Shown here: positions 8,478-38,581 of the stretch, in pieces
Layout of the letters: each line of letters opens with the position of its first letter
Numbering within the stretch: the first letter of the stretch is position 1
Virus genome (UHGV): UHGV-0864147
Reading direction: 5' to 3' (one strand)
DNA: 39,187 nucleotides
From: a virus
The notes under the pieces: model-generated
Databases searched by the model: none
What the model saw: only the letters and a program-made list of their open reading frames with translations
What the model was told of the DNA's origin: nothing
Made by a program: the position numbers and the translations under genes

Positions 8478-9062
8478 ATGAAAAGTATCCAGGACGTCCG
8501 CAGGCAAAATCTCAACGACTTGATCGACCGTGAATTCAATGGTGTTCAGACGCGGATGGCAGAAAAACTTGGAACTCAGGCAAATCTGGTAAACCGCTGG
8601 GCTCTTGGCAAGAAGGTTATCGGCGACCAGGTTGCGCGAAAAATTGAAGCTGCCGCCAATAAACCCCGTAACTGGCTTGATATCGATCGCTCGCTTTCTC
8701 AGGAAGGTTTTCAGCCTGTCGGCCCAAGCGACATTGGTCAGCTGGCGGCTCACAACCTGGAACGCTGGATGAGCGAAAGCCGCGACCTTTCAACACAGGG
8801 AAAACTTCACCGCGCATCCGGCGTCGCCCAGGTGACAATCAGCCGCCTGTTAAACAATGAGGTCAGCGTTTCCATTTCCACCCTGGAGAATGTTGCATCC
8901 GCATTCGGGCGTCACGGCTATGAATTACTGATTCACCCGCACGACCCTGCGACCATCAACTATGACCGCTCGCGCTACGCATTGTTACCCGAAACCGAGA
9001 AAGCAAAGATCGAAAGTTACATTGAATTTGTCATCAACCAGAACGAAAAAAACAAACAATAA
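8478..9062 (+). CDS. prophage repressor, two HTH domains, no S24 peptidase domain
   Basis: 194 aa; two XRE-like HTH segments; located at cI position; followed by strong terminator. Confidence 0.55.
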   Translation: MKSIQDVRRQNLNDLIDREFNGVQTRMAEKLGTQANLVNRWALGKKVIGDQVARKIEAAANKPRNWLDIDRSLSQEGFQPVGPSDIGQLAAHNLERWMSESRDLSTQGKLHRASGVAQVTISRLLNNEVSVSISTLENVASAFGRHGYELLIHPHDPATINYDRSRYALLPETEKAKIESYIEFVINQNEKNKQ

Positions 9063-12970: not shown

Positions 12971-14221
12971 TTATTCCCCCGCCATCCACTTCTCAAACTT
13001 CGACGGGGAGAACGGAATCAGATCCGTATGCTCCCCGTTAATCCAGGAATCAATCATATCGGCCCACTGCTGCAACATGTAGGCGCGCTGTCTGGCGTAT
13101 TCCGCTTTGTTATATACGGCGCGCACACCTTTCTGCTCATGTGCCAGAGCCTTTTCAATCCAGTCTGAAGGATAACCAGCCTCATGCAACAACGTACTGG
13201 CTGTACGGCGCATATCGTGTACGGTGAAGCCCTGAATATGCTCACCATCTTCATTTATTATTTTCACCGTTCTGTCGATCAGAGAGTTCAGCGCGGCATT
13301 AGATAATGGCTTCCGGAAATTGTAACGACCAGGAACCAGATATTCACTTCCACCAGCGCACATCTGCAACCCAACCAATATATCCTGTGCCTGTTTAGGC
13401 AGGTAAATAACGTGCGCCCGGCTTCCCTTCATGCGGTCTGAAGGAATTGTCCATGTCCATTTTTTAAAATCTATTTCATCCCACGTTGCATTGGTGAATT
13501 CGCCTTTACGAACCATAGTGATAAGCACCAGCTTTAAAGCCATTTTCATAGTGCCCATAGCACCAATGGCATCCAGCGTGCGGAAGAACAGGCCAATTTC
13601 TTCTGGTGTCAGTGTTCGCTCTCGTGGTTTAAATATGGCGATAGACGAAGGTTTAATGTCAGCCGCAGGATTAAACAAACCATGACCACGGTCATTGGCG
13701 TGACGGTATACGCTGCTGATGATCTCCCTGGCCTGTACTGCTGTTGCCCGACCACCGCGTTCGACAATCCGGTCACACAAATCACGAACCATCGATGTGG
13801 TAATTTCAGCCATCATTTTGTTGCCAAGAACCGGAAGTATGTCACGGTCGATCACCGCCTGCTTCATTGCGCGGGTACTGTCAGCCAGGATGACGTGTTT
13901 CATATAACTGTCGGTATGTACCGCAAACGTCTCGGCACCACGAATCTTTTTGATACCGTCACGTTTAGCCGCAGCCGGTGACTGGCCTGCTTTAAGCAGC
14001 TTCTTTGCAGCAATCAGTTCTTCTCGCGCTTCTGCCAGGCTGATACCGTCACGCCCATACTGCCCGATTACCAGTGTTTCGCGGCGACCGTTGATACGGT
14101 AGTCATAGCGAAACGAGACCGTGCCTGACGTAAGCACAGCTACATACAGCCCGTCACGGTCGGAGACCTTGTACAGTTTGTCCTGCGGCTTGAGGTTTTT
14201 TAATTTTGTATCGGTAAGCAC
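12971..14221 (-). CDS. int: tyrosine integrase
   Basis: 416 aa; conserved C-terminal tyrosine-recombinase residues (R...HDMRRT...Y) recognisable; GTG start. Confidence 0.85.
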   Translation of the reverse strand: MLTDTKLKNLKPQDKLYKVSDRDGLYVAVLTSGTVSFRYDYRINGRRETLVIGQYGRDGISLAEAREELIAAKKLLKAGQSPAAAKRDGIKKIRGAETFAVHTDSYMKHVILADSTRAMKQAVIDRDILPVLGNKMMAEITTSMVRDLCDRIVERGGRATAVQAREIISSVYRHANDRGHGLFNPAADIKPSSIAIFKPRERTLTPEEIGLFFRTLDAIGAMGTMKMALKLVLITMVRKGEFTNATWDEIDFKKWTWTIPSDRMKGSRAHVIYLPKQAQDILVGLQMCAGGSEYLVPGRYNFRKPLSNAALNSLIDRTVKIINEDGEHIQGFTVHDMRRTASTLLHEAGYPSDWIEKALAHEQKGVRAVYNKAEYARQRAYMLQQWADMIDSWINGEHTDLIPFSPSKFEKWMAGE

Positions 14222-16503: not shown

Positions 16504-19110
16504 TTATTTCCTGCAAACTCCAGATGATGTTAATCCATCAAAAATAACCTGCACTCTGGCAATAACAACATCAACTCCAGAAGTCGTTTCACTTGCATAA
16601 CCAAGTTTTATTTTAGATACAATATCCTGAGTAAGTTCAGATATTTCAGTTTCTGCAATGTTACCAGAGGCCATGTGATTATCGTATGCCATAGAATGAA
16701 TTCCATTATTGACATCGATTGAACTAGTATGTTTGTGAAAAATAGATGGGTTTACCTGAAACGAATTTGAACCGATAAGATCAGAAGATACTCCATTCAT
16801 CACTGCAGTACAGCGTGGAATATTATTATCGGTTATTGTCATATGCAGACGGTTACCAGTTAACCCCTCACCAAGTGTGACATAATACGCCAATTCTCCA
16901 CCTGCATATTGTTTCCCCTCAACAATAACAGTAATCCCTCTTAATTTCTGATTAGCTAGCAAAAACTTATTACTGTCTATATAGCATTTATTTGCGGAAC
17001 CAAAAACAGCCCCTTCTAAAATATCTGATGAATAGGAATAAATAAGGTCACCTGAAACAAAGGAAAGAATATCAGATACGTTTCCTTTTTTAGATAAGTT
17101 GGGAGAATAGCTATTAACTATTTCATATTGTCCTGTGATAAAATCAAGGTAAACGCCATCAGTTTTCATCTCTTTAAAGAAAATGCTATTAAAGCATCCA
17201 TCAAGAACCGGTGGATATATTCTAGAGCTTGCATAAGCTGTTGGGTGATTCTTATTATTACCACTACCAGGCGAATAAACATCTTCGTTAGTCATTGACT
17301 TTTTAAGCTTAACAGGAATCATCGGCTGCATATCAATTTTGCAGTTCCCTGAACCACCGATGCGAGGATAAAATAAACCACCAAACCTTACAATATTACT
17401 ACTGAATAGTATTTCGTTATCGTTAAGTGTTATCTCAACGAAGTTTCCAATAAGTTTAAATTCAACTGAAAACAAACCAAGTGGAGCAGATAATTTAACA
17501 ATATTGCGCATAAAAACACCTACAGTCCCTGTTGATGCAGTATAGTGTGTGGTTTCAAAGGCAGAGCCTGTATATTTCAAGTTAATGAAATTATTATGGT
17601 ATGAAGACAATTGGAATTGAATCCCAGAACTAAGGATTTCAATATCTACAAATTGAATCCTTACGGAGTAAGAATATGATAAATCTTCATATTCATAAGG
17701 CAATGTAACATCTTTTGAAATAGTTGCCCTCACATAATTACCAGAAACCACATCAACCCCATCACGTACTGCATTAAAGTAACGATTAAAATCAATAAGC
17801 CCAGCGCCAACATACTGCGCATATGAACGAGTCCATCCTGCCATTGCGTTTCGTCCATTCTGAGCTTCTAAACTGCTAAATTCAGAGTCACTTGTGGTAC
17901 TTGATGGGAGGATATTTGTACAAAAAACAATTTCAGGCATTGAAGTAATATCATTCAGTTCAGCCATCAATTTAAAAAAAGTTTTCTGCGGGAAGTTACC
18001 AACATCCCAACCATCTCCGTCATTCATGCCAAAAGCAATAATAACAACATCAGGGTTAATATCACGAATGTAATCAATCCAGCGTCTGTTCGTGTCTGAA
18101 TACCATGGGTACTGTGAGTTATAAGAAGTAATTGCTGGTGTATCTTTTCCAAGGTCATAGTACCTCATTCCACCAATTGCTCTGTTAAATAAAGTAGAAC
18201 TTGGGAATTTCTCTTGCAAAACTCTCTTAAGATGAGCGGCAAAAATGCTTGATCGATCCACTGTGCTTATATTATATGGGGCACTTAAGCTGTCACCAAC
18301 TAACACTATTTTTGAGTTAGGCCTTGATAATCTCTCAAGTGTTTTAGATGTGACTAAACTGCAGGAATTAATGAACTGAGTACTATTTAGCGTCTGTTCA
18401 AGTGTATCACCAAATCTGGTACCAACGTATGATGATCCGTTGACACTTGCTAGCTTAAGGCATAAATCAGCAGTATCTGTAATTGAAAAAATAGGAACAG
18501 GACGTCCTAAACTGTCATACCCCTGAATTGAGTTTGCCCTAGAAGATGCTGATGCCATTTCGCTTACTATCTCAGGGAAGCGGAGTGTTTTAGATATGTT
18601 GCTGTTAATAACTCCTTTGATAGATGAGTCTGTATATTTCTTCGTGGAAGCGTCCTGAGGAAATAATGGATCATCAAGGTTACGAATACGATTGCCGAGT
18701 GCATCGTAGTAAGTGGCACTAAATGATGGTTTACGAAGAGCCAGCCGAGCCATGCTTTTGACTAACTGGATCAGCATCGTTAGCTTATCAAAAGCATCCT
18801 CATGCACTTCCGCAAAGAACTTACCCTGATTGCGCAGATCAGTTTCCTGTGTAACCGGTAGCTCTCGTGATATAGAAATCTTATAGCCATTGGCCAACGC
18901 CTTCGACAATATTACATTTCCACCATTGTATCCTCCGGCCCCGGTAACTATATAATCAGTATCAAGAGTCAGTACGGTGATATTTTCATGAATATCAACA
19001 ACCTGCACAATCAAATCAGATTTATTGAAAACCCTAAAGGCATACGGAAACGATGTCGTAACGCCGTTACCGGTGTATTCGTTGTGGTCAACTTCGGTTG
19101 AGACCGTCAT
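16504..19110 (-). CDS. tailspike: T7 gp17-like N-terminal adaptor domain plus SGNH/GDSL hydrolase domain
   Basis: 868 aa; N-terminus YTGNGVTTSFPY pattern; internal VLVGDSLSA (block I) and FGMNDG (block III) SGNH motifs; AT-rich. Confidence 0.75.
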   Translation of the reverse strand: MTVSTEVDHNEYTGNGVTTSFPYAFRVFNKSDLIVQVVDIHENITVLTLDTDYIVTGAGGYNGGNVILSKALANGYKISISRELPVTQETDLRNQGKFFAEVHEDAFDKLTMLIQLVKSMARLALRKPSFSATYYDALGNRIRNLDDPLFPQDASTKKYTDSSIKGVINSNISKTLRFPEIVSEMASASSRANSIQGYDSLGRPVPIFSITDTADLCLKLASVNGSSYVGTRFGDTLEQTLNSTQFINSCSLVTSKTLERLSRPNSKIVLVGDSLSAPYNISTVDRSSIFAAHLKRVLQEKFPSSTLFNRAIGGMRYYDLGKDTPAITSYNSQYPWYSDTNRRWIDYIRDINPDVVIIAFGMNDGDGWDVGNFPQKTFFKLMAELNDITSMPEIVFCTNILPSSTTSDSEFSSLEAQNGRNAMAGWTRSYAQYVGAGLIDFNRYFNAVRDGVDVVSGNYVRATISKDVTLPYEYEDLSYSYSVRIQFVDIEILSSGIQFQLSSYHNNFINLKYTGSAFETTHYTASTGTVGVFMRNIVKLSAPLGLFSVEFKLIGNFVEITLNDNEILFSSNIVRFGGLFYPRIGGSGNCKIDMQPMIPVKLKKSMTNEDVYSPGSGNNKNHPTAYASSRIYPPVLDGCFNSIFFKEMKTDGVYLDFITGQYEIVNSYSPNLSKKGNVSDILSFVSGDLIYSYSSDILEGAVFGSANKCYIDSNKFLLANQKLRGITVIVEGKQYAGGELAYYVTLGEGLTGNRLHMTITDNNIPRCTAVMNGVSSDLIGSNSFQVNPSIFHKHTSSIDVNNGIHSMAYDNHMASGNIAETEISELTQDIVSKIKLGYASETTSGVDVVIARVQVIFDGLTSSGVCRK

Positions 19111-19305: not shown

Positions 19306-19563
19306 ATGCAGCGGTATCACTATCCACTGGAAGACGGATTTACCGAAAGGATTCACACGCCGGGAGGCGTCAGGTCACTGGTGGAGGGATCGCACTTGAT
19401 GAAATTACTCCGGGATCTCGATAAGGATGGATTTAATGTCGATGGCCCACTTGCCGAACTGACTGCACTGATTAACTACGTCACCAGCTCACAGATGTCT
19501 ATGCGGGATCTGCAAACACATCTCGACTATTGTGCCGAACAATTACGAAAACAAACCAGATAA
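19306..19563 (+). CDS. small protein paralogous to antirepressor C-terminal domain; LexA-regulated
   Basis: ATG 19306 with GGAG upstream; about 45 percent identity to Ant C-terminus by eye; LexA box upstream. Confidence 0.5.
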   Translation: MQRYHYPLEDGFTERIHTPGGVRSLVEGSHLMKLLRDLDKDGFNVDGPLAELTALINYVTSSQMSMRDLQTHLDYCAEQLRKQTR

Positions 19564-19566
19564 GGT

Positions 19567-19609
19567 TTGCAATTACCAAGTGGAGTGCTTATATTTACCT
19601 TTGAGGTAA
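19567..19609 (+). promoter_or_regulatory. promoter-like element (-35 TTGCAA, -10 TATATT) with TTACC-N5-GGTAA site 19595-19609
   Basis: 17-bp spacer; perfect operator-like repeat overlapping -10/+1. Confidence 0.4.
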
Positions 19610-19877
19610 ATTTACATCGCACTCCTCTTGTGCCATAGTAATCGGGCACTGGCAAAATCCAGTGCCGGGATTGGTCTCCCGGATTACTACAGAGGCACAT
19701 ATGCCGCATAAGCGGTTTTTTTTATGTGTAAAGCGCACCTATTCTATGGTGGGCTGTGTGGGGGCACCGAAAGGTGCGCCGGGTTCCTTTGTAGCCGGTA
19801 AGACCAACTCTGCACAGTTCACCACCATCTGATTGGTCTCAGCGGTGGTGATTAACCTAACTACAAAGGTGATCGCC
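19610..19877 (+). ncRNA. structured leader / candidate regulatory RNA upstream of ant
   Basis: Hairpins at 19646-19665, 19665-19682, 19704-19715 plus U8, 19764-19777 (GAAA loop), 19819-19851; CCTTTGTAG (19786-19794) complementary to ant SD region (19861-19869). Confidence 0.3.
19704..19723 (+). terminator. weak terminator/attenuator in ant leader
   Basis: CCGC ATAA GCGG followed by eight T. Confidence 0.35.
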
Positions 19878-20570
19878 ATGAATACCAAACCTTCCATCTT
19901 TTCCTTTGAGTCATCCTGCCAGATCCGTATGTTCATGATTGACGGAGAACCTTGGTTTGTCACCAAAGATGTGTGCAATGCTTTGAATATTGATGTTACA
20001 CAAGCGAGAAAACTTGATAAAAAAGGCTGGAACAAAAAGGGGCTGTATTCAATACAGACCCCTGGTGGAATACAAGAACTATCCATCGTTTCAGAATCAG
20101 GTCTCTACATCCTTATTCTGCGTTGCAAAGAGGCAATGACTGAGGGAACGAGAGCATTCAGATTTCTTGAATGGGTTACAGGCGAGGTTCTTCCTCAGAT
20201 CCGCCGCACCGGAAGTTACATTAAAAACTCGCTACCGCAGGAAGAACGCATAAAGATGGTTGCCGACCAGGTAGCCAACGCCACGGCGTCAGCAGTAATG
20301 CAGGCGATGAAGATAGAGAACAAAACCTACAACGCCCCGCTGAAGCCCGGCTACCGCAGCCTGATTCATTCCCCGTCTGGTGTTCTCGGCCTGACGGAGA
20401 ACTCACTGCTGATGAATCTGCTGAACCAGTTACAGGAAGACGGGCACGACGTATCGGGCGCGGCGGCGGAGCTGACCACCATGTTCTGCTACATCGTCGG
20501 TGTGAGCAAATGCCTGCGTGATATCCAGACGCACGCGGAGTACATCAACGACAAGGCTGGGTTCTTCTGA
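19878..20570 (+). CDS. ant: antirepressor (Bro-N N-terminal domain)
   Basis: FSFESSCQIRMFMIDGEPWFVTKDVCNALNI and GLYILILRC / VLPQIRRTGSY Bro-N signatures. Confidence 0.8.
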   Translation: MNTKPSIFSFESSCQIRMFMIDGEPWFVTKDVCNALNIDVTQARKLDKKGWNKKGLYSIQTPGGIQELSIVSESGLYILILRCKEAMTEGTRAFRFLEWVTGEVLPQIRRTGSYIKNSLPQEERIKMVADQVANATASAVMQAMKIENKTYNAPLKPGYRSLIHSPSGVLGLTENSLLMNLLNQLQEDGHDVSGAAAELTTMFCYIVGVSKCLRDIQTHAEYINDKAGFF

Positions 20571-20779: not shown

Positions 20780-21319
20780 GTGTTAAGTGAAGAAATGCAA
20801 TTTGCCATGGCTGTGGCTCAAATCGTAAGTGCAGTCGCGGTTTCGCTTGGCTTGTTCATAGCTATCGCTACTATTATTTATAATGTAAATACAGCGAGAA
20901 AAGTACACACTTCAGTATTCCTTGGTGAAAGCAGGTTTGATGTAGATTATAAGAAAGGCCTATCTACTATGCGCCGCATTCACGAATCGAACAAATCATT
21001 CCGCTCTTATATGTATCCAAGCAATGGGCAGGCTGATCTTACGGATGAAGAAAAGACAGAGAAGAGAGAAATAATTTACTGTCTAGGTTTCTACGAACGC
21101 ATGGCTGTGAGCGTGAAGCGGAAAACTTATGATGAGACCATGATTAAGGAAGTATTTTACAGCTCCGTTGTAAATAACTATCAGATTGCGCTACCTCTTA
21201 TACAAGCCATTAGAGAAAAAGAAAACATAAACACATATTTTAAAGAATATGAATGGTTGGCCACACGATGGAAGGATTGCCCATTGAAGGATAAATCCCC
21301 GTGGTACAAGTTTTGGTAA
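20780..21319 (+). CDS. AT-rich moron: single-pass membrane protein of unknown function
   Basis: 179 aa; N-terminal TM helix; own promoter-like region and terminators on both sides. Confidence 0.5.
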   Translation: MLSEEMQFAMAVAQIVSAVAVSLGLFIAIATIIYNVNTARKVHTSVFLGESRFDVDYKKGLSTMRRIHESNKSFRSYMYPSNGQADLTDEEKTEKREIIYCLGFYERMAVSVKRKTYDETMIKEVFYSSVVNNYQIALPLIQAIREKENINTYFKEYEWLATRWKDCPLKDKSPWYKFW

Positions 21320-38504: not shown

Positions 38505-38581
38505 GTGGCATTAGCTCAGTTGGACAGAGCAACCGCCTTCTAAGCGGTTGGTCGCAGGTTCGAATCCTGCATGCCACGCCA
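38505..38581 (+). tRNA. tRNA-Arg (anticodon UCU)
   Basis: 77 nt cloverleaf: acceptor GTGGCAT/ATGCCAC, D-arm GCTC..GAGC, anticodon stem ACCGC/GCGGT with loop CTTCTAA, T-arm GCAGG TTCGAAT CCTGC, encoded CCA. Confidence 0.85.

Follow-up and report, generated by a model that had tools for sequence, protein, structure and literature searches.

The leader of ant in this prophage contains two phage RNAs known from earlier work, IsrK and C4 antisense RNA, laid out as in phage P1, and is a fresh but ordinary instance of a known antirepressor control system. We consider it quite probable that it represents an RNA immunity module of the P1 immI type in the genome of an epsilon15/phiV10-like (Uetakevirus) Escherichia coli phage. 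The window that we analysed is a 39,187-nt stretch of DNA, virus genome UHGV-0864147. The order on the locus is a promoter with a putative repressor operator, box a1, box b1, a terminator, C4 (with box b' in a hairpin loop and box a' in the 3' junction), box a2, box b2 over the Shine-Dalgarno (SD) sequence, and the regulated gene (Table 1). Family membership, box complementarity, box covariation and the location of b2 over the SD were all observed directly.

Table 1. Features of the ant leader and its surroundings, with positions in the window
Feature	Position	Strand	Description
LexA box	19269-84		CTGT-N8-ACAG match, 5' of ORF85
ORF85, small antirepressor	19306-19563	+	Directly upstream of the leader
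Promoter-like site	19567-19595	+	TTGCAA-17-TATATT; consensus scan only, 9/12 matches
Palindrome	19594-19610	.	TTTACCTTTGAGGTAAA, core TTACC-N5-GGTAA 19595-19609; candidate prophage-repressor operator
isrK promoter	19611-19639	+	TTTACA-17-(TG)CATAGT; from scan, predicted start G19646
IsrK small RNA	19646-19723	+	Rfam RF01394, model span 19646-19722
Box a1	19671-19677	+	UUGGUCU; loop of IsrK hairpin 2, complementary to a'
Box b1	19687-19695	+	CUACAGAGG; IsrK linker, complementary to b' with one G-U pair
C4 antisense RNA	19742-19829	+	Rfam RF01695 span
Upstream ORF, 28 codons	19746-19832	+	Starts at conserved AUGG of C4 5' arm; Gifsy-1 orf45 counterpart; Pfam Phage_ASH frame
Box b'	19786-19794	+	CCUUUGUAG; in the 12-nt loop of C4 hairpin 2, same loop as P1 b'
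Box a'	19801-19807	+	AGACCAA; single-stranded 3' junction of C4
Box a2	19833-19839	+	UUGGUCU; target of a', begins 7 nt past predicted C4 3' end, P1 a2 position
Segment	19844-19851	+	GGUGGUGA; two possible pairings, C4 3' arm or SD-AUG spacer
Box b2	19861-19869	+	CUACAAAGG; target of b', includes ant SD AAGG 19866-69
ant, 230 aa	19878-20570	+	Regulated gene; BRO-N residues 16-106, C-terminal domain 149-222

The leader matches the IsrK and C4 families

A preliminary description, made from the letters of the sequence, had singled out positions 19564-19877 as a highly structured leader, and the sequences that it quoted were all found at their coordinates. The 301 nt from 19600 to 19900 fold with -115.7 kcal/mol, as compared with -88.8 ± 5.8 kcal/mol for dinucleotide shuffles (z = -4.6), none of 100 shuffles being as good, and all six boxes fall within stretches predicted to be single-stranded. 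The U8-terminated stem of that description was recovered as GCCGC-AUAA-GCGGU (19703-16), followed by T8 (19716-23). It had also suggested a riboregulator of antirepressor translation resembling P1 c4, to be sought with the Rfam C4 and IsrK covariance models; both families scored above gathering, and the proposal is borne out by the P1 architecture of the boxes and by covarying pairings in homologous phages.

The isrK model (RF01394) matched with 74.7 bits, against a gathering score of 50 (E around 1e-14). IsrK comprises hairpin 1 (19646-65), hairpin 2 (19666-81), a single-stranded linker and the intrinsic terminator with its U8 tract, which a signal scan also found independently of Rfam. Compensatory changes occur in six of the seven pairs of helix 1 and in 3/5 of those of helix 2. 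IsrK lies directly 5' of C4 and of an antirepressor-type gene, all on one strand, an arrangement common to Gifsy-1, phiV10, APSE-7 and five IMG/VR loci. The c4-a1b1 model (RF03163) scored 39.9 bits at 19633-85 (E 1e-8), below its gathering score of 46.7; the a1 and b1 boxes themselves are present and covary, and the position of a1 corresponds to that annotated for P1.

The C4 model (RF01695) matched over its full length (model positions 1-87) with 78.6 bits, against a gathering score of 45 (E around 1e-14). Within clan CL00128, only C4 was retained for 19742-19829 and, besides the sub-threshold c4-a1b1 match, no other member was listed down to E = 1. Mature C4 is predicted to span 19748-19826 (79 nt), judging from where the homologous P1 C4 (77 nt) is annotated to begin and end. 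The fold is a long outer stem around two hairpins, the outer stem being 91% paired with 10/17 pairs altered on both sides. Compensatory changes affect three of the five pairs of hairpin 1, whereas the collecting pattern prescribed hairpin 2, which is therefore uninformative for covariation.

The preliminary description had also seen two alternative pairings for GGTGCGC (19773-79), and only one of them stood. The pairing of GGCACC (19763-68) with GGTGC is C4 hairpin 1 and covaries (helix 5), but GCGCACC (19733-39), the other proposed partner, is unconserved. It is absent even in phiV10, which has GTCACAT in that position of the alignment, so that this second pairing is probably due to chance.

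C4 boxes covary with their targets

The two boxes of C4 are fully complementary to their targets in the ant leader (a':a2, 7/7; b':b2, 9/9). The b':b2 pairing is the exact 9-nt complementarity between CCTTTGTAG (19786-94) and CTACAAAGG (19861-69, the ant SD region) noticed beforehand. A lone 9-nt complement in ~310 nt is not rare, with ~0.2 expected by our rough estimate, and the significance of this one comes from the comparative data below rather than from the single match. Box a' corresponds to CUGUCAA in P1 and to Gifsy-1 positions 158-164, which contain the derepressing mutations C159U and C162U (PMC4825925).

Analysis of compensatory changes in related phages, which had been put forward as a check, showed that the a boxes and the internal helices covary, and that the b' loops match their own SD-proximal boxes. 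Pairing of a' was 90.4% with a2 and, over 35 loci, 90.6% with a1, with 5/7 pairs altered on both sides in either case; with the partner slid by 1-3 columns, only 24-50% remained paired. The internal helices of C4 and IsrK were 89% paired, with 27 of 45 pairs altered on both sides and none of 500 shuffles as good, although the locus-collecting pattern had fixed both inner hairpin stems, which give little independent information.

Because the register between loop and SD box shifts by up to 3 nt between types (alignment A1), b':b2 was assessed by a register-free comparison of own and cross-locus partners rather than by counting in fixed columns. The 28 distinct C4 loops, from related viral contigs, differ on average at 6.9 of 12 positions; locus L083, for one, has a loop/SD-box type (GCAUACGGA) that differs from the present one. 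The mean run of complementarity was 8.46 nt between a b' loop and its own SD-proximal box, as compared with 4.38 nt for the boxes of other loci, and a Watson-Crick match of at least 8 nt linked loop and own box in 24/28 loci but was found in only 3 of 756 cross-locus pairs. In most of the 31 types the target of the own loop ends 8-11 nt before the ATG, the same position as b2 before P1 icd. Likewise, a b1-like match to the own loop lies 14-18 nt (mostly 15-16) past the start of a1 in most types, with mean runs of 8.6 nt within and 6.3 nt across loci. The near-identity of a1/b1 and a2/b2 means that covariation cannot rank these pairings, nor separate a decoy from a second target.

The GGUGGUGA segment could pair in two ways. 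With the 3' arm of C4 (19819-26) it would place a2 in a hairpin loop, and this helix is 89.2% paired with 4/8 pairs altered on both sides. The alternative helix, between GGUGGUGAU and the SD-AUG spacer (19870-79), would enclose b2 in a loop; it can be drawn in many loci, but own (7.5) and cross-locus (7.1) values do not differ, and we retain it as a possible option. The two box duplexes have modest energies, -10.8 and -8.0 kcal/mol. Minimum free energy co-folding of C4 gave 0.0 kcal/mol with the ant leader and -1.8 kcal/mol with IsrK, no better than with shuffled targets; since loop-loop contacts lie outside the program's model, this outcome is uninformative either way.

The C4 region as a reading frame

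A model shown genetically for Gifsy-1 isrK-orf45-anrP (PMC4825925) would, if it applied here, make the C4 region mainly mRNA: IsrK in trans would unmask the start of the upstream ORF (19746), and translation of this ORF would switch on ant by coupling. In its favour, orf45 begins at the conserved AUGG of the C4 5' arm, 31/35 loci have no stop in this frame across C4, and Pfam Phage_ASH matches at threshold (26.4 bits, cut-off 26). However, the stop of the present ORF, at 19830-32, leaves 46 nt to the ant ATG, in contrast to the AUGA overlap of orf45 and anrP in Gifsy-1. Across types, the stop lies anywhere from 36 nt before to 84 nt after the end of C4 and the ORF has 14-54 codons or is open, while P1, APSE-7, L116 and L184 contain stops inside C4 in this frame. 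Furthermore, variation is even over codon positions (18/19/19), leaving no codon-position signature, no SD precedes 19746 and, by homology with the 5' end of P1 C4, processing would cut inside the AUG. The A of this AUG (A19746) lies outside the outer stem of C4. Despite the threshold-level Phage_ASH match, we rejected a protein-coding C4 region on the lack of a codon-position signature and the stops in some members, including P1; the upstream ORF is probably not a conserved coding feature, and control of ant through its translation is unlikely.

It is extremely improbable that chance alone put these hairpins and complementarities into an ordinary untranslated leader, or that the region encodes a small 'Ash family' protein. 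One 9-nt complement in ~310 nt would not by itself be improbable, and public records annotate an 'Ash family protein' across the region; yet two curated covariance models match at E around 1e-14, the folding z-score is -4.6 and compensatory changes occur within and between the RNAs, with no signature of codons. As far as computation reaches, the comparative data already refute this reading.

Operator, promoters and regulated gene

The palindrome at 19594-19610 is likely the operator of the prophage repressor, whose binding is suggested by sequence. An HTH_3 protein encoded at 8478-9062 is a candidate to bind it. The TTACC-N5-GGTAA motif occurs 16 times in the window, as compared with 0.85 expected, and the palindrome adjoins the -35 of the isrK promoter, which it also precedes in the alignment in phiV10, L102, L114, L180 and L184. 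A further site, at 19215-29, has the position of the 'repressor' binding site annotated in the epsilon15 record just upstream of gp19, the ORF85 homologue. In P1, the analogue of the palindrome is Oc4.

The A (19635) and T (19639) of the isrK -10 are invariant across 35 aligned loci, including P1 and Gifsy-1, and the Gifsy-1 +1 of Hershko-Shalev et al., checked against their mutant numbering, aligns with 19646. The start region of the other promoter-like site (19567-19595) is covered by the palindrome, and the number of promoter-like sites in the leader region is not above chance, as judged from shuffles.

The parallel that had been drawn with P22 sar fared less well, as signals for an opposite-strand transcript do not stand out. 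The sole minus-strand promoter-like site (19963-19935) is a 9/12 match, site counts are not above those of shuffles, and there is no minus-strand terminator between this site and 19539; we rejected a sar-like RNA. P22 sar controls translation of an antirepressor through an RNA that pairs over its ribosome-binding site, as the present system would by analogy, but sar is an opposite-strand transcript across the ant start, whereas both RNAs here lie on the ant strand.

The product of ant matches Pfam Bro-N with 51.5 bits, and its C-terminal domain is homologous to the SPC32H-type small antirepressor (43% identity to ORF85 by BLASTP, E 8e-17). ORF85 is itself 87% identical to the phage SPC32H gene annotated 'ant: anti-repressor protein', and the phiV10 homologue of ant is annotated 'putative anti-immunity protein'. 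No icd-like ORF lies between b2 and ant, b2 being located 8 nt before the ant ATG (19878). Regulated genes of the related loci encode BRO-N, Rha or ORF6N proteins, or small proteins like P1 Icd in size and position. In PADLOC, neither ant nor ORF85 nor the DUF4760 neighbour matched a defence system.

Proposed mechanism

Most likely, by analogy with P1 and Gifsy-1, processed C4 masks the ant ribosome-binding site and the a1/b1 decoys of IsrK compete for C4. Transcription would begin at ~19646, from the conserved promoter adjoining the repressor operator; the majority of transcripts would end at the U8 terminator, giving a 77-nt IsrK RNA, and those that read through would contain C4 and ant. C4 (~19748-19826), with its long stem and two hairpins, would be excised from this precursor and pair through its single-stranded boxes with the ant leader, a' with a2 and b' with b2. 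Pairing over the SD would prevent ribosome binding, and the BRO-N antirepressor would not be made; the block would operate both in cis and on an incoming phage having the same boxes. IsrK would bind C4 through its copies of the target boxes, a1 in a hairpin loop and b1 in the linker, so that separate, abundant IsrK would be a decoy that titrates C4 and allows ant to be translated, whereas in the unprocessed precursor the same a1/b1 pairing would lock IsrK to C4. C4 processing, the block to translation, the sense in which IsrK acts and the occupancy of the operator are carried over from work on P1 and Gifsy-1, and would hold here by analogy. In P1, C4 (~77 nt) is reportedly released from a longer transcript by RNase P (Hartmann and colleagues, 1995), and it represses the synthesis of Ant in trans.

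By our alignment, the published Gifsy-1 changes G28A and G31A (PMC4825925) lie in a1, and C159U and C162U lie in a'. The a' mutations raised basal anrP translation more than 100-fold, and IsrK supplied in trans activated it 139-fold, whereas a1 mutants of IsrK were inactive in trans (PMC4825925). The a1 mutations in cis raised, rather than lowered, basal translation (PMC4825925), an effect that a pure decoy model does not predict. In lysogens, transcription of IsrK and of STnc1160, the C4 homologue, was high in each of 17 conditions (PMC7067206). Hfq binding is another trait by which the IsrK family is characterised, and one that would hold here by analogy.

Attenuation, as with the P4 CI RNA, would assign a1/b1 another role: C4 made earlier would pair with nascent a1/b1 and alter termination at the IsrK terminator (19703-23), so that a1/b1 would be a feedback target setting read-through into C4 and ant, not a decoy, and a2/b2 pairing would add Rho-dependent polarity. 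Boxes a1/b1 do lie 8-32 nt upstream of the terminator stem, C4 and P4 CI share Rfam clan CL00128, and Biere, Citron and Schuster reportedly described in 1992 a transcriptional control that follows translational repression by P1 c4. In Gifsy-1, IsrK in trans raised a transcriptional fusion 8-fold, and Hershko-Shalev et al. raised this possibility for STnc1160 (PMC4825925). Nevertheless, the location of b2 on the SD in most of the 31 types suggests that translation is primarily targeted; constitutive STnc1160 did not lower the IsrK effect in Gifsy-1 (PMC4825925); and eight module types carry, between terminator and C4, an insert bearing a TATAAT-like -10, so that C4 there does not necessarily depend on read-through. 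We hold attenuation to be very unlikely.

We advance a wider reading tentatively, with confidence slightly short of even. IsrK and P1 c4 would be one system, in which IsrK is a free-standing version of the P1 'a1b1' segment and a dedicated anti-antisense decoy for C4; Gifsy-1 'orf45' and the Pfam/PGAP 'Ash family protein' calls would in fact report the gene for C4 RNA; C159U and C162U would derepress by disrupting a':a2; and the module would be a second, RNA-gated route of prophage induction, whose output shares an antirepressor domain with the LexA-gated small Ant next door. Reviews still treat IsrK and P1 c4 as separate systems.

Comparison with known systems

The immI region of P1/P7 (c4, icd, ant1/ant2; Citron and Schuster 1990) likewise has an RNA that Rfam assigns to C4. 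Features marked in the P1 record are Oc4, two promoters, a1, b1, c4, a2, b2 and icd, in the same order as here, with gaps of 7 nt (here 9) from a1 to b1, 22 nt (here 21) from a2 to b2 and 10 nt (here 8) from b2 to the ATG. The likeness extends to b' in a loop, a' in the junction, b2 over the SD, a repressor operator at the promoter and an antirepressor as output. The P1 operon is icd-ant, with translation of ant coupled to icd, whereas the present locus is without icd and b2 covers the antirepressor's own SD; a small first gene like P1 Icd in size and position is present in other collected loci. The antirepressors also differ (BRO-N with an SPC32H-Ant-like domain here, Ant1/Ant2 in P1), the a1/b1 segment scores here as full IsrK but falls below the Rfam gathering score in P1, and the boxes have other sequences and hence another specificity.

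Gifsy-1 of Salmonella (Hershko-Shalev et al. 2016, PMC4825925) has isrK, C4 and an antirepressor-type gene on one strand, as here; its published mutations fall in the a1 and a' boxes and, by analogy, C4 would depend in both on read-through of the IsrK terminator. AnrP is, however, an ORF6N protein, in contrast to BRO-N here, and the antQ neighbour of Gifsy-1 is absent. Its authors took the Gifsy-1 region for an ORF, and their comparison was to P4 CI rather than P1 c4 (PMC4825925).

The APSE phages of Hamiltonella (Rouil et al. 2020, PMC7313666; LR794147) contain the same trio of isrK, C4 and BRO-N, and their antisense boxes match the BRO gene's untranslated region. They differ in host clade and phage type (Sendosyvirus), and LR794147 swaps the a' and b' labels relative to P1. 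The P4 CI RNA with seqA/seqC (CL00128) is a processed antisense RNA flanked on both sides by target copies, as C4 would be here by analogy, but the best model for the present locus is C4, not CI, and P4 CI works on replication genes, where it causes transcription to terminate prematurely instead of masking an SD (PMC4825925).

Significance

In phiV10-like phages and matching E. coli genomes, this region is unannotated, hypothetical or called 'Ash family', and its proper label is isrK and C4; a match is present in 542/5426 complete E. coli genomes, roughly 10%. The basic picture of how such modules work is unchanged by our results, which suggest that the Gifsy-1 data can be re-read in P1 terms. 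The six-box design is common to P1, Gifsy-1, APSE, Stx phages and the present podoviruses, and the at least 28 loop specificities in our sample are the signature of an RNA-based immunity code. In the present phage, one repressor appears to receive two inputs, a LexA-gated small antirepressor and an RNA-gated BRO-N fusion with a homologous domain.

Two known RNA families in the ant leader

An Rfam scan covering the whole window, with curated thresholds, gave three hits; two of them, isrK and C4, lie inside the leader and score above their gathering scores (see the table of features). These are the families to which the preliminary description, proposing a riboregulator before ant, had pointed. 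A more permissive Rfam scan added a match to RF03163, 'a1, b1 targets of C4 antisense RNA', which overlaps the 5' half of isrK (39.9 bits, under the gathering score of 46.7; E 1e-8). Both the C4 and the c4-a1b1 family go back to Weinberg et al. 2010 (PMC2864571); C4 is the immunity repressor c4 found in phages P1 and P7. In Rfam searches, the isrK and C4 pair was also present in phiV10, APSE-7, Gifsy-1 and five IMG/VR loci, and P1 matched C4 plus c4-a1b1. The locus belongs to both the isrK and the C4 RNA families; the leader feature is real and its initial interpretation correct.

Features of the ant leader and of neighbouring DNA, in window positions
Feature	Position	Sequence	Remark
LexA box	19269-84	CTGTATAAATATACAG	perfect CTGT-N8-ACAG
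ORF85	19306-19563
isrK promoter	19611-39	TTTACA-17-CATAGT
RF03163 match	19633-85
isrK (RF01394)	19646-19722		74.7 bits, gathering score 50
a1	19671-77	UUGGUCU	loop, IsrK hairpin 2
b1	19687-95	CUACAGAGG	IsrK linker
terminator-like stem	19703-16
T run	19716-23	eight T's
C4 antisense RNA (RF01695)	19742-19829		78.6 bits, gathering score 45
b'	19786-94	CCUUUGUAG	loop, C4 hairpin 2
a'	19801-07	AGACCAA	3' junction of C4
a2	19833-39	UUGGUCU	directly 3' of C4
b2	19861-69	CUACAAAGG	covers ant SD
DUF4760 gene	20780-21319

The boxes follow the plan of phage P1

Six boxes were recognized, mutually complementary and all in predicted single-stranded stretches. The P1 record lists Oc4, a site for the C1 repressor, followed in order by two promoters, a1 (7 nt), b1 (8 nt), the 77-nt C4, a2, b2, icd and ant1/ant2; inspection of the P1 sequence assigns b' to the hairpin 2 loop of C4, a' to the single-stranded 3' junction and b2 to the icd SD, which it covers. 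The window shares this plan, with gaps of 9 nt between a1 and b1 (7 nt in P1), 21 nt between a2 and b2 (22 nt) and 8 nt between b2 and the ATG (10 nt). From homology with the annotated P1 ends, the mature C4 would span 19748-19826.

All sequences quoted in the preliminary description, including the stem followed by eight T's, were located where it had placed them. Its 9-nt complement to the SD region is exact, covering the AAGG 8 nt before the ant ATG (19878), and since the box plan matches that of P1 it corresponds to b':b2; its GGCACC/GGTGC pairing is C4 hairpin 1. The suggested likeness to P1 c4 and P22 sar was borne out for the P1-type box plan, and a sar-like RNA on the opposite strand was rejected.

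Translational coupling to an upstream ORF, as in Gifsy-1, would be an alternative means of control. However, the ORF starting at 19746 stops at 19830-32, 46 nt short of ant, whereas in Gifsy-1 the two frames overlap at ATGA. Additionally, the position of the stop varies across types, lying inside C4 in P1 and three others, and variation is even over codon positions (18/19/19), all of which speaks against coupling. An ORF over C4 (19662-19832) matched Pfam PF10554, 'Phage_ASH', with 26.4 bits (cut-off 26), and the isrK/C4 region is labelled 'Ash family protein' in public records for phage vB_EcoP_ZX5 and Hafnia phage yong2. This match and these labels are most probably due to conservation at the RNA level, and the Phage_ASH family may in part represent the C4 RNA gene in translated form.

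Boxes covary over many specificities

An exact-pattern scan of IMG/VR, with the two inner hairpin stems fixed and the 12-nt loop free, identified 120 stretches. Among 151 pattern matches with enough flank (fetched loci and the window), 126 had the C4 outer stem, comprising 31 loop-plus-junction types and 28 distinct loops, which differ from one another at a mean of 6.9 of their 12 positions. The longest Watson-Crick match of a loop to its own downstream 80 nt averaged 8.46 nt and reached at least 8 nt in 24/28, as compared with a mean of 4.38 nt, and at least 8 nt in only 3 of 756 pairs, for the downstream regions of other loci. For most of the 31 types, the loop-matched box finishes 8-11 nt upstream of the ATG; a further match to the loop, 14-18 nt (mostly 15-16) past the start of a1, is present upstream in most types.

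We then aligned 35 loci (the window, phiV10, APSE-7, Gifsy-1, P1 and 30 IMG/VR types). The internal helices of the Rfam IsrK and C4 models were paired in 89% of cells, with 27 of 45 pairs changed on both sides; none of 500 shuffles was as good, and slid partners gave 38-44%. Likewise, 90% of cells were paired for a':a2 (slid partners, 24-50%) and 91% for a1:a' (25-47%), with 5/7 pairs changed on both sides in each case. Compensatory changes across related phages, which the preliminary description had named as a check, thus occur in the internal helices and in both box pairings, and the boxes covary over many specificities. The leader is also highly structured, as first described: positions 19600-19900 fold at -115.7 kcal/mol, against -88.8 ± 5.8 for shuffled sequences (z = -4.6). 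On this value and the helix covariation, a chance origin of the structure was rejected.

The C4 3' arm (19819-26) can also pair with GGUGGUGA at 19844-51 in a conserved alternative hairpin with a2 in its loop (19819-51; 89% paired, 4/8 pairs changed on both sides). Pairing of GGUGGUGA with the SD-AUG spacer (19844-19879) is possible, with no covariation signal. In eight types (L096, L100, L109, L133, L170, L179, L185 and L198), an insert of approximately 40 nt follows the IsrK terminator, ahead of C4 (columns 190-230 of the 35-locus alignment, A1). Because most of these inserts hold a TATAAT-like hexamer, C4 may have its own promoter in these types rather than depend on read-through.

Promoter, probable operator and proposed mechanism

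The A and T of the isrK promoter -10 are invariant in 35/35 aligned loci. Adjoining its -35 is the palindrome TTTACCTTTGAGGTAAA, the probable counterpart of P1 Oc4. Copies of its core, TTACC-N5-GGTAA, number 16 in the window where 0.85 would be expected; most are intergenic, and the sites include 2554, 6015, 6077, 8408, 9120, 9182, 19215, 19595 and 38168; pairs of sites border an HTH_3 repressor-like gene (8478-9062). In the epsilon15 record a 'repressor' binding site, at the position of window copy 19215-29, is annotated immediately before gp19 (homologous to ORF85).

By analogy with P1 and Gifsy-1, transcripts from 19646 would mostly stop at the U8 terminator, producing IsrK, and C4 would be processed from those that read through. 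C4 bound to a2/b2 would block ribosome binding to ant in cis and in trans, thereby conferring specificity-dependent immunity, and IsrK would relieve the block by capturing the same C4 boxes with a1/b1.

We mapped the published Gifsy-1 mutations (L203, 34076-34330, minus strand): G28 and G31 belong to a1, C159 and C162 to a', and A107 to the conserved AUG of the C4 5' arm. Basal translation of anrP, at 4 units, rose to 484-926 units when a' was mutated; supplied in trans, IsrK activated 139-fold, and IsrK a1 mutants showed neither trans activity nor binding (PMC4825925). IsrK and the C4 homologue STnc1160 are abundant in lysogens in 17/17 conditions tested (PMC7067206). With positions mapped in this way, the Gifsy-1 genetics fit the proposed mechanism. 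The increase in basal expression caused by a1 mutations in cis is at odds with a pure decoy model (PMC4825925). P4 CI-like attenuation at the IsrK terminator, through pairing of C4 with a1/b1, is possible as an added layer. The Gifsy-1 C4 loop is also complementary to AUCACCGG, just upstream of the anrP SD; the Gifsy-1 paper does not discuss whether STnc1160 pairs with the leader of anrP (PMC4825925).

Genomic context and the controlled gene

The window is an epsilon15/phiV10-like (Uetakevirus) genome. Segment 19200-20600 shows 84-87% identity to phiV10 and relatives and 99.9% to many E. coli chromosomes. Among 5426 complete genomes, 542 match it, and in 113 of these the match spans at least 80% of the segment. 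Epsilon15 (L204) lacks the isrK-C4-ant module and has a terminator directly after gp19. The module and the adjacent DUF4760 gene, which had no PADLOC match, seem to be an insertion in phiV10-like phages, because in epsilon15 gp18 alone separates that terminator from gp17, which seems to correspond to the window 824-aa ORF.

ORF85 is preceded by a LexA box and shares 87% identity with a gene of Salmonella phage SPC32H that carries an antirepressor annotation, which together point to an SOS-gated small antirepressor; in the prophage, this appears to stand directly upstream of an RNA-gated one. The ant product has a BRO-N domain, and its residues 149-222 (20322-20543) align with ORF85 over 74 aa at 43% identity (E 8e-17). 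Judged from this homology, the C4-controlled gene is a fusion of BRO-N with the antirepressor domain of its LexA-controlled neighbour. Elsewhere, the gene that follows b2 encodes BRO-N, Rha, ORF6N (Gifsy-1 AnrP), DUF6124 or a small protein similar to P1 Icd in size and position.

An 868-aa tail fibre/tailspike gene (16504-19110, minus strand) adjoins the module. Residues 271-447 of its product form a GDSL-type lipase/acylhydrolase domain, so that it may modify a receptor by deacetylation. At 38505-38581, near the window end and far from the integrase gene (12971-14221), there is a full-length tRNA-Arg with anticodon TCT.

Relation to known systems

The nearest systems are P1/P7 immI, Gifsy-1 isrK-orf45-anrP and the isrK, c4 and BRO arrangement of APSE phages, previously noted (PMC7313666; also record annotation). 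Unlike P1/P7 immI, the locus lacks icd, and unlike Gifsy-1 it lacks an orf45-type overlap; a further difference is its output, a BRO-N fusion with an SPC32H-Ant-like domain. A unified reading of IsrK and c4 derives from existing Rfam families and defines no new kind of system. It is nevertheless of some value, since a 2025 review still treats IsrK and c4 as separate systems and the Gifsy-1 paper likens its locus to P4 CI, not to P1 c4 (PMC4825925).
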